DNA of 64,000 nucleotides, taken from sequence record NC_024125.2, one strand, 5' to 3'. This stretch comes from Escherichia phage vB_EcoM_112. The number at the start of each line of letters is the position of its first letter. The first letter of the stretch is position 1. Positions 54,043-54,819 of the stretch are shown here, piece after piece. A program made the position numbers and the translations under genes. Below the pieces are notes generated by a model that was not told the DNA's origin, did not search any database, and saw only the letters and a list, made by a program, of their open reading frames with translations.

Positions 54043-54819
54043 ATGGCAGTTGAAGGACCGTGGGTAGGATGGTCTGCGAGGGTACAAACTGGAGACCCTT
54101 GGATGGGTGGTGCCGCGCAGAGATTGAGAATGGGAATTCCGTTTTGGATGAGTAATATGATAGGTCGATCTGTTGAAGTAATTCACACACTTGGAGCGGA
54201 CCATAACTTCAATGGTCAATGGTTCCGAGATAGATGTTTTGAGGCAGGTAGTGCACCTATAGTGTTTAATATCACTGGAGATTTAGTATCATATTCTAGT
54301 GATGTTCCTTTATTCTTCATGTACGGAGATACACCTAATGAATATGTTCAATTGAATATACACGGCGTAACGATGTATGGTCGCGGCGGGAATGGTTGGG
54401 CTGCTGGAGCGATTGGAGCGTCTGACGGTGGTGTATGTATCCAAAATGATATAGGTGGACGTCTACGAATTAATAACGGGGGAGCTATTGCTGGTGGCGG
54501 CGGTGGCGGCGGTGGATATTCGCAAGCCAATAACTGGGCAGGAAAATACGTATGTGGAGGCGGCGGTGGTCGTCCATTTGGCTTAGGCGGAAATAATGGT
54601 GCTCGATGGCCTGGTGGAAATGCTAGCTTAACAGCACCAGGTGCTGGTGGTAATACTGGCCAGTATTGGGCTGGCGGTGGAGGTGAAGTTGGTCAACCAG
54701 GTCAATATGCTAATCCAGGTAATGGTTATTCAACACCTCCGACAAATCCTGGTGCTGCTGTAGCAGGATCAGCTCCAACATGGCAAAACGTTGGAGCTGT
54801 ATACGGTTCAAGAGTATAA
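54043..54819 (+). CDS. 38: gp38 receptor-recognising adhesin, T2/T6 type (glycine-rich motifs)
   Basis: 258 aa from [10 protein letters not shown] (SD GGAGG 6 nt upstream); C-terminal half has Gly-rich blocks (GGGGGGGG, GGGGG) between variable segments. Confidence 0.85.

Follow-up and report, generated by a model that had tools for sequence, protein, structure and literature searches.

A probable OmpC-binding gp38 adhesin in a T4-like phage, joined from wV7-like and Sf23/PP01-like parts

Gene 38 of Escherichia phage vB_EcoM_112 encodes a gp38 adhesin of a T4-like phage that probably binds OmpC, and the gene appears to be a recombinant in which a wV7-like beginning is joined to an Sf23/PP01-like receptor-binding part. 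The gene was examined within a window of 64,000 nucleotides (sequence record NC_024125.2), where it occupies positions 54043..54819 on the + strand, with an ATG at 54043, a stop codon at 54817-54819 and a product of 258 amino acids. Its assignment draws on the open reading frame (ORF), on Pfam profiles, on matches to solved structures in the PDB and on an AlphaFold2 (AF2) model. An earlier note, made from the DNA letters, had described a product of about this length with a glycine-rich C-terminal half and had placed it among the T2/T6-type adhesins rather than with the assembly chaperone of T4. Both descriptions are borne out, with glycine-rich blocks at aa 146-159, 171-186 and 200-220. In the mechanism that we propose, the phage is T4-like (Tequatrovirus), and its gp38 would be a receptor-binding adhesin that sits as a monomer on the end of the distal tail fibre, a trimer of gp37.

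Membership of the adhesin family is evident at the level of both sequence profiles and fold. The protein matches the full length (positions 1-218) of the Pfam profile GP38, 'phage tail fibre adhesin' (PF05268), with an E value of 4.9e-72 and 242.8 bits relative to a cutoff of 25, and aa 1-40 match Gp38_N (PF21721) with an E value of 1.3e-19 and 70.3 bits (cutoff 25). The sfGFP-fused receptor-binding domain of PP01 gp38 (PDB 9V85) is 97% identical over aa 37-258 (E 2e-137), and gp38 of Salmonella phage S16, as present in the gp37-gp38 tip complex (PDB 6F45, chain D), is matched with an E value of 3e-50. The AF2 model, which was derived from 71 homologues and is a predicted rather than a solved structure, has a mean pLDDT of 92.2 and superimposes on 9V85 with an RMSD of 0.7 A and a TM score of 0.96, and on 6F45_D with TM scores of 0.84-0.87. 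No PDB folds besides these two were found to resemble it. S16 gp38 has the same fold, domain order and glycine motifs and is borne by a homologous gp37 tip, but its sequence is only 44-49% identical and its loops are different. Likewise, the classical T-even adhesins of T2, T6, M1 and Ac3 belong to the same family and share the layout of motifs and loops, with 49-75% identity overall, but their loops are unrelated to those described here, and other receptors are expected for them. Both Pfam thresholds are exceeded, and the motif and loop layout, the predicted fold and the gene 37-38-t context are all those of T2-type gp38 adhesins.

Proteins of this type have been located at the fibre tip in the virions of T2, T6, PP01 and S16, where published work finds them to be needed for adsorption. 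The adhesin is also the predominant form of gp38 among T4-type phages, with T4 being the exception (Trojet et al.), and 360 phage records match gene 38 in a nucleotide search. For these reasons, the framing of the locus as a T2-type module in a T4 backbone is somewhat inverted.

The architecture of the protein was delineated by aligning 117 near-full-length sequences from a total of 137 homologues found, which span 39-97% identity, and by computing entropy and gap profiles over the columns. The earlier note had suggested an alignment of this kind as a means to separate glycine-rich from hypervariable segments, and the two are indeed separable: five conserved, indel-free glycine motifs alternate with high-entropy loops, and every indel falls within the loops. 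This layout agrees with that published for gp38, and the loops are the counterparts of those named A-E in the crystal structure of PP01 gp38. Of the residues in aa 113-258, 33% are glycine, compared to a mean of 6.3% across the 46 ORFs in the window that reach 150 aa and to 18% in the next glycine-richest 146-aa stretch among these ORFs, and therefore the excess is not a matter of chance. In the PP01 and S16 structures, the glycine motifs form polyglycine-II helices packed into a rigid sandwich from which the variable loops protrude distally.

Along the chain, gp38 has all the parts of such an adhesin, with an attachment domain for gp37 at the N-terminus, a beta-helix part in the middle, and then the five glycine motifs with loops A-E, all of which are encoded on the + strand. 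The attachment domain (aa 1-40, 54043..54162; PF21721) is of the wV7/Sf23 type, and is 98-100% identical to the same segment of wV7-type gp38s whose loops are unrelated. Glycine motif 1 (GRGGNG, aa 113-118, 54379..54396) consists of invariant or near-invariant columns in both the 71- and the 117-sequence alignments, and is followed by variable loop A (aa 119-129, 54397..54429), which exhibits high entropy and indels and includes the equivalent of PP01 loop-A (W119-I124). Glycine motif 2 (aa 145-158, 54475..54516) contains a poly-Gly run of GGN codons at 54493-54516 and has no indel columns among the 117 homologues, and variable loop B (aa 159-171, 54517..54555) is identical to its PP01 counterpart. 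The conserved, indel-free columns of glycine motif 3 (aa 172-183, 54556..54591) precede the variable loop C region (aa 184-198, 54592..54636), in which indels occur after aa 185 and to which PP01 loop-C (N184-W189) corresponds. Glycine motifs 4 (PGAGG, aa 199-203, 54637..54651) and 5 (aa 210-220, 54670..54702), both in conserved columns, enclose the short variable loop D (NTGQYW, aa 204-209, 54652..54669). The variable loop E region (aa 221-236, 54703..54750) then leads into a C-terminal segment of conserved columns (aa 237-258, 54751..54816), the DNA of which would provide the right-hand homology arm of a swapped receptor-binding part.

The receptor was predicted by comparison with PP01 gp38 (PDB 9V85), whose receptor is OmpC of E. 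coli O157 and whose relative is AR1. Its gene lies at the same position, its protein is 95% identical overall and 97% identical over the crystallised domain, and its loops A-C and glycine motifs are the same. The two proteins differ by six substitutions within the first 19 residues, which constitute the gp37-docking end, by R86S, and from residue 111 on by S198A, T207Q, deletion of G208, Y210W, A228N and I254V. The changes S198A, T207Q, G208 deletion and Y210W are located in or beside loop D, in which Tyr209 is kept, and A228N replaces the alanine at the tip of loop E, where the equivalent of Tyr230 is likewise kept. At the nucleotide level, gene 38 differs from that of PP01 by approximately 9%, mostly at synonymous sites. 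For aa 111-259, dS is 0.52 and dN is 0.025, with the replacements found mostly in loops D and E, which marks an old split between the two lineages with purifying selection acting strongly.

Published work on PP01 (PMC12892980) indicates what such differences might mean. Loop E of PP01 inserts into a cleft between OmpC loops 5 and 7; PP01 depends critically on Tyr159, on Tyr209 and on the conformation near Tyr230; residues 158-170 are essential for adsorption; and Lys168 and Tyr169 may touch LPS. At the loop-E tip, residue 228 (Ala228) must be hydrophobic: PP01 could no longer infect through O157 OmpC when Ala228 was deleted or changed to Asp (A228D), whereas deletion of G208 was tolerated. Five of these six critical residues (Tyr159, Lys168, Tyr169, Tyr209 and Tyr230) are kept in the protein examined here, and the sixth, Ala228, is an asparagine. 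Because the PP01 homologue is 97% identical, loops A-C are identical and these five residues are retained, we infer that the loops of this gp38 contact the porin OmpC, with loop E seated in the cleft that separates OmpC loops 5 and 7. The details of binding may nonetheless differ from those of PP01, since asparagine occupies the loop-E tip where the Ala228 mutations A228D and deletion were so damaging in PP01, and preference for particular OmpC alleles is perhaps shifted as well. More tentatively, and with doubts that outweigh our support for the idea, the asparagine tip and the shortened loop D might produce a different docking in the loop-5/loop-7 cleft and admit a wider set of OmpC alleles (O157 plus Shigella) than PP01 can use. 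The phage has been reported as specific for E. coli O157:H7 (PMC4241651), and our search of the literature for a published receptor of Shigella phage Sf23 found nothing usable.

The surroundings of the gene confirm the T4-like backbone that the earlier note had described, in that identity to T4 is 92-100% in most 300-nt bins from 36 to 64 kb of the window. Nucleotide matches to T4 cease at about 50,830, a short way into gene 37, and are absent up to 54,819 at the gene 38 stop codon, and the flanks of this exchanged region are 95-100% identical to T4. For its left part, the relatives are wV7 and O157 typing phage 7, with identities of 100% in gene 36, 93.3% along the whole of gene 37 and 93-99% in gene 38 from codon 1 to about codon 100, but the receptor-binding loops of wV7 gp38 (264 aa) are unrelated, at 7-27% identity per loop. 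For its right part, the relatives are Shigella phage Sf23, with 99.1% nucleotide identity in gene 38 and a protein that differs at one residue (S86R), and Escherichia phage vB_EcoM_G4507, with 97.6% nucleotide identity and a different gp38 N-terminus. The receptor-binding part of gp38 in both phages is identical to that in the window, but their gene 37 is different, being no more than 75-78% identical at 50,940-51,200 and unmatched at 52,800-53,400.

Informative sites place the change of affiliation unambiguously inside gene 38. Between 52,801 and 53,600, the window agrees with wV7 and not Sf23 at 332 sites and with Sf23 and not wV7 at 14, while between 54,201 and 54,800 the corresponding numbers are 3 and 214. 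The last position at which the window equals wV7 and differs from Sf23 is 54,210, and from 54,273, densely from 54,351, it equals Sf23 and differs from wV7. These sites define a crossover interval at 54210..54351 (+ strand, gene 38 codons 57-103), with wV7-like DNA to the left and Sf23/G4507-like DNA to the right. The interval ends before glycine motif 1 begins at 54,379. Alignments to wV7-type records end at 54,359, and similarity to wV7 and T2 resumes within the conserved C-terminal segment, at approximately 54,760. The receptor-binding part of the gene between these limits (about 54,351-54,760) is 99-100% identical to Sf23/G4507 and cannot be aligned with wV7. Because the switch takes place before 54,351 and similarity to wV7 and T2 returns near 54,760, the swapped unit would be approximately 410 nt long and consist of the loops and glycine core, situated between two conserved homology arms.

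We propose that genes 36 and 37, together with the gp37-docking start of gene 38, would derive from a wV7-like source, that the receptor-binding part (about 54,351-54,760) would derive from an Sf23/G4507/PP01-like source, and that homologous recombination within the 5' part of gene 38, which is conserved, would have brought the two together; the order and direction of such events are not derivable from present-day sequences. A junction at this site would keep the interface between gp37 and gp38 matched while specificity changes. Such matching proved necessary in the PP01 study, where PP01 gp38 was functional with a foreign gp37, that of T2, only once its N-terminal 113 aa had been exchanged for matching ones (PMC12892980). 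Among 50,697 records, no other was found to cross the 52,800-54,819 junction at high identity. The combination of a wV7-type gp37 with a PP01-type receptor-binding part would be a natural N-terminal-matched chimera similar to the one engineered by the PP01 authors.

Among the homologues, segment-wise identities of N-terminus, loops and C-terminus are decoupled from one another. This agrees with the published model of recombinational shuffling in which glycine motifs serve as recombination sites (Tetart 1998; Trojet 2011), so that the recombination at glycine blocks that the earlier note had envisaged is not a new idea. The crossover in this phage is located upstream of the first glycine motif. 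We considered glycine-motif DNA as the crossover site here and rejected it, given this location of the wV7/Sf23 switch and the fact that the choice of GGN codons differs between lineages.

Several competing explanations for the gene and its history deserve consideration. A gene named 38 that lies between genes 37 and t could be expected to encode a non-structural chaperone of the T4 type, which aids gp37 trimerisation and is absent from the virion. T4 gene 38 is indeed 552 nt in length and encodes 183 aa annotated as tail fibre assembly, as the earlier note had stated, but the name and map position are all that the two genes have in common. BLASTP of the protein against T4 gp38 (183 aa) found no similarity (best E 1.5, over 9 residues), so the full-length alignment to the chaperone that would have spoken against an adhesin is not observed, and there is no nucleotide match between the two genes. 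The T4 record itself notes that the 'gp38' of the T2 subfamily is an unrelated adhesin. In addition to matching the Pfam families of adhesins and the crystal structures of two of them, the protein is accompanied by a gp37 that possesses its own intramolecular chaperone domain at the C-terminus, beginning with SDIRVKK at aa 1004 (53676..54008, + strand; Pfam Peptidase_S74 at aa 1004-1063, E 1.1e-12). This domain would be cleaved off near Ser1004, and a T2-type gp37 so equipped would have no need of a T4-type gp38 chaperone. We regard a chaperone function as practically out of the question. Far less extreme, though still unlikely, is an adhesin that binds a receptor other than OmpC (OmpA, OmpF, Tsx or FadL, or chiefly LPS) as a consequence of the changes in loops D and E. 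Small changes in variable segments can switch receptors in the gp38 family, the asparagine at the loop-E tip is not the hydrophobic residue that PP01 requires, and loop D is one residue shorter. Weighing more heavily are the 97% identity of the domain to that of PP01, the identical loops A-C and the retention of every critical residue save Ala228, along with the tolerance of PP01 for loss of G208. Moreover, close gp38 relatives share one receptor, and T2, T6, M1 and Ac3 have unrelated loops, all of which leaves OmpC as our preferred receptor.

Two further alternatives concern how the locus acquired its present form. The earlier note had viewed genes 37 and 38 as a laterally exchanged host-range cassette, and the unbroken loss of T4 similarity between about 50,830 and 54,819 fits the acquisition of both genes together from a single donor. 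Exchange is well supported by this loss, but the single cassette is not, since the best gene 37 relatives (wV7 and typing phage 7, 93%) have a gene 38 receptor-binding part that cannot be aligned, and the best gene 38 relatives (Sf23, 99%; G4507, 98%) lack a gene 37 match at 52,800-53,400. With the switch from wV7-like to Sf23-like DNA at 54,210-54,351, a single donor seems improbable, and the locus appears to be a finer mosaic than one cassette. The other alternative addresses the GGN tract, where the DNA at 54493-54516 is GGTGGCGGCGGTGGCGGCGGTGGA, exactly as the earlier note had quoted it. Tandem Repeats Finder reports a perfect 9-nt unit present 2.6 times at 54493-54515, and such a repeat, (GGTGGCGGC)x2.6, might be a slippage-prone contingency locus at which variants in poly-Gly length diversify the adhesin. 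This perfect repeat is offset by the alignment of the 117 homologues, in which there are zero indel columns in the poly-Gly tract or in any other glycine motif despite the breadth of identities covered (39-97%). We had also entertained the variable length of the poly-Gly run (4-9 Gly) as a sign of slippage, but discarded it when the full alignment attributed the spread to substitutions at the ends of the run, with no indels. Codon choice within the GGN tract varies between lineages and the amino acids remain fixed, which indicates that selection acts on the protein, not on a repeat. The block also belongs to the packed polyglycine-II core in the crystal structures, and deletion of glycine motifs, this one included, yielded no viable T6 phage, according to the literature. 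Slippage, which the earlier note had thought plausible, thus finds no support in the alignment, and we consider a contingency locus highly improbable.

The start codon of gene 38 also merits attention. An alternative in-frame ATG upstream, at 54013, gives a protein of 268 aa that matches exactly AHY83454.1 / YP_009030861.1, the 'receptor-recognition protein' of Escherichia phage vB_EcoM_112 (formerly e11/2). The protein collection searched contains this longer annotated form only, with no exact entry for the 258-aa form that begins at 54043. We favor the shorter form because of the starts of its homologues, the position of the Pfam N-terminal domain, a ribosome-binding site and the location of the upstream ATG. 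Specifically, the MAV... codon equivalent to ATG 54043 is the annotated start in the Sf23, G4507, PP01 and T2 homologues, and Gp38_N aligns with residue 1 of the 54043 form. Furthermore, a GGAGG Shine-Dalgarno sequence, read from the DNA at 54033..54037 (+ strand), resides 5 nt upstream of this codon, and ATG 54013 is only 1 nt past the gene 37 stop codon and falls within a strong hairpin. The deposited start of AHY83454.1 is probably 10 codons too early.

The hairpin just mentioned, GAGGGGC-UUCG-GCCCCUU (54015..54032, + strand), was identified by RNA folding in the 31 nt that separate genes 37 and 38, immediately 5' of the Shine-Dalgarno sequence for gene 38. It has an 8-bp stem and a UUCG tetraloop, and the enclosing structure has a predicted energy of -16.2 kcal/mol with a z score of -2.3. 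The same site carries a putative terminator annotation in phage G4507. No late-promoter motif specific to gene 38 was found, and because the gene has none of its own, the hairpin may be a stabiliser of the mRNA or an attenuator rather than a full stop, and gene 38 is probably transcribed by read-through from the promoter-like TATAAATA upstream of gene 36. This copy of the late-promoter-like motif is located at 49,971-49,978, and the motif also occurs upstream of gene 34. It is not enriched in the window (12 found versus 9 expected), and its assignment as a promoter is purely positional. When the entire window was compared with Rfam, nothing scored above the gathering thresholds.

The order of genes 36-37-38-t is the same as in T2, PP01 and Sf23. 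Gene 36, for the hinge connector (50002..50658, + strand; Pfam Phage_T4_gp36), is identical to that of wV7 throughout and has a central patch that diverges from T4. Gene 37 (50667..54011, + strand) encodes a T2-type distal half-fibre subunit of 1114 aa that is a mosaic of mostly wV7-like character, its best full-length matches being wV7 and O157 typing phage 7 at 93.3%. The last 194 residues of gp37 (aa 921-1114) match S16 gp37 of the tip complex (6F45_A) with an E value of 2.4e-46. On the right flank, the holin gene t (54850..55506, + strand; Pfam Phage_holin_T, E 4e-118) marks the return to 98-100% identity with T4.

Additional observations were made in and near these genes. Approximately aa 712-911 of gp37, in the distal shaft (52,800-53,400), align only to wV7-type phages, at 95-100% identity, and no nucleotide match for this stretch is detectable in Sf23, G4507, PP01, T2 or T4, which gives it the look of a block that was exchanged on its own; its role is possibly that of a secondary receptor or LPS contact. 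At the extreme C-terminus of the gp37 chaperone domain, a 21-nt tandem repeat present 1.9 times with 84% matches (53,944-53,983) encodes a heptad-like peptide that probably forms a trimeric coiled coil. Farther upstream, identity to T4 falls to 17-76% in a gene 34 patch (47,700-48,300) and in a gene 36 patch (50,100-50,460), of which the former is 92-97% identical to Sf23 and the latter 100% identical to wV7; therefore, mosaic exchange reaches the genes for the proximal half-fibre and the hinge.

The segG homing-endonuclease region between genes 32 and 59 (42,001-42,600) is 100% identical to T4 and absent from Sf23; being markedly more T4-like than the neighbouring DNA, it suggests recent homing or exchange. 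The intron of gene td (- strand) lacks about 553 nt at approximately 38,356-38,371 relative to T4 (NC_000866, about 143,775-144,328), a gap that removes most of the I-TevI homing-endonuclease ORF and leaves flanking intron and exon sequences in place at 91-93% identity. At td, no group I intron passed the gathering threshold of Rfam.

Much of this picture has precedents. The 2014 genome announcement stated that the vB_EcoM_112 genome is highly similar to T4 and that ORFs 225 and 226, for the tail fibre, are similar to their counterparts in PP01 and AR1, which are specific for O157, and not to those in other T-even phages (PMC4241651). The presence of PP01/AR1-type fibre genes in a T4-like genome has therefore been published already, very probably for this genome. 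The family, the design of glycine motifs and loops, the fold and recombinational shuffling are likewise all published, and no new principle is presented here. What we add is modest, and consists of a base-level map of the wV7-like to Sf23/PP01-like junction inside the gp37-docking half of gene 38, and the placement of the few differences from the crystallised PP01 domain on two OmpC-contact loops. The remaining interest of the system lies in its natural pairing of a wV7-type gp37 with a PP01-type receptor-binding part and in the asparagine at the tip of loop E. Because gp38 adhesins set which outer-membrane protein, and hence which strains, a T-even phage attacks, they are targets for host-range engineering in phage therapy and biocontrol.
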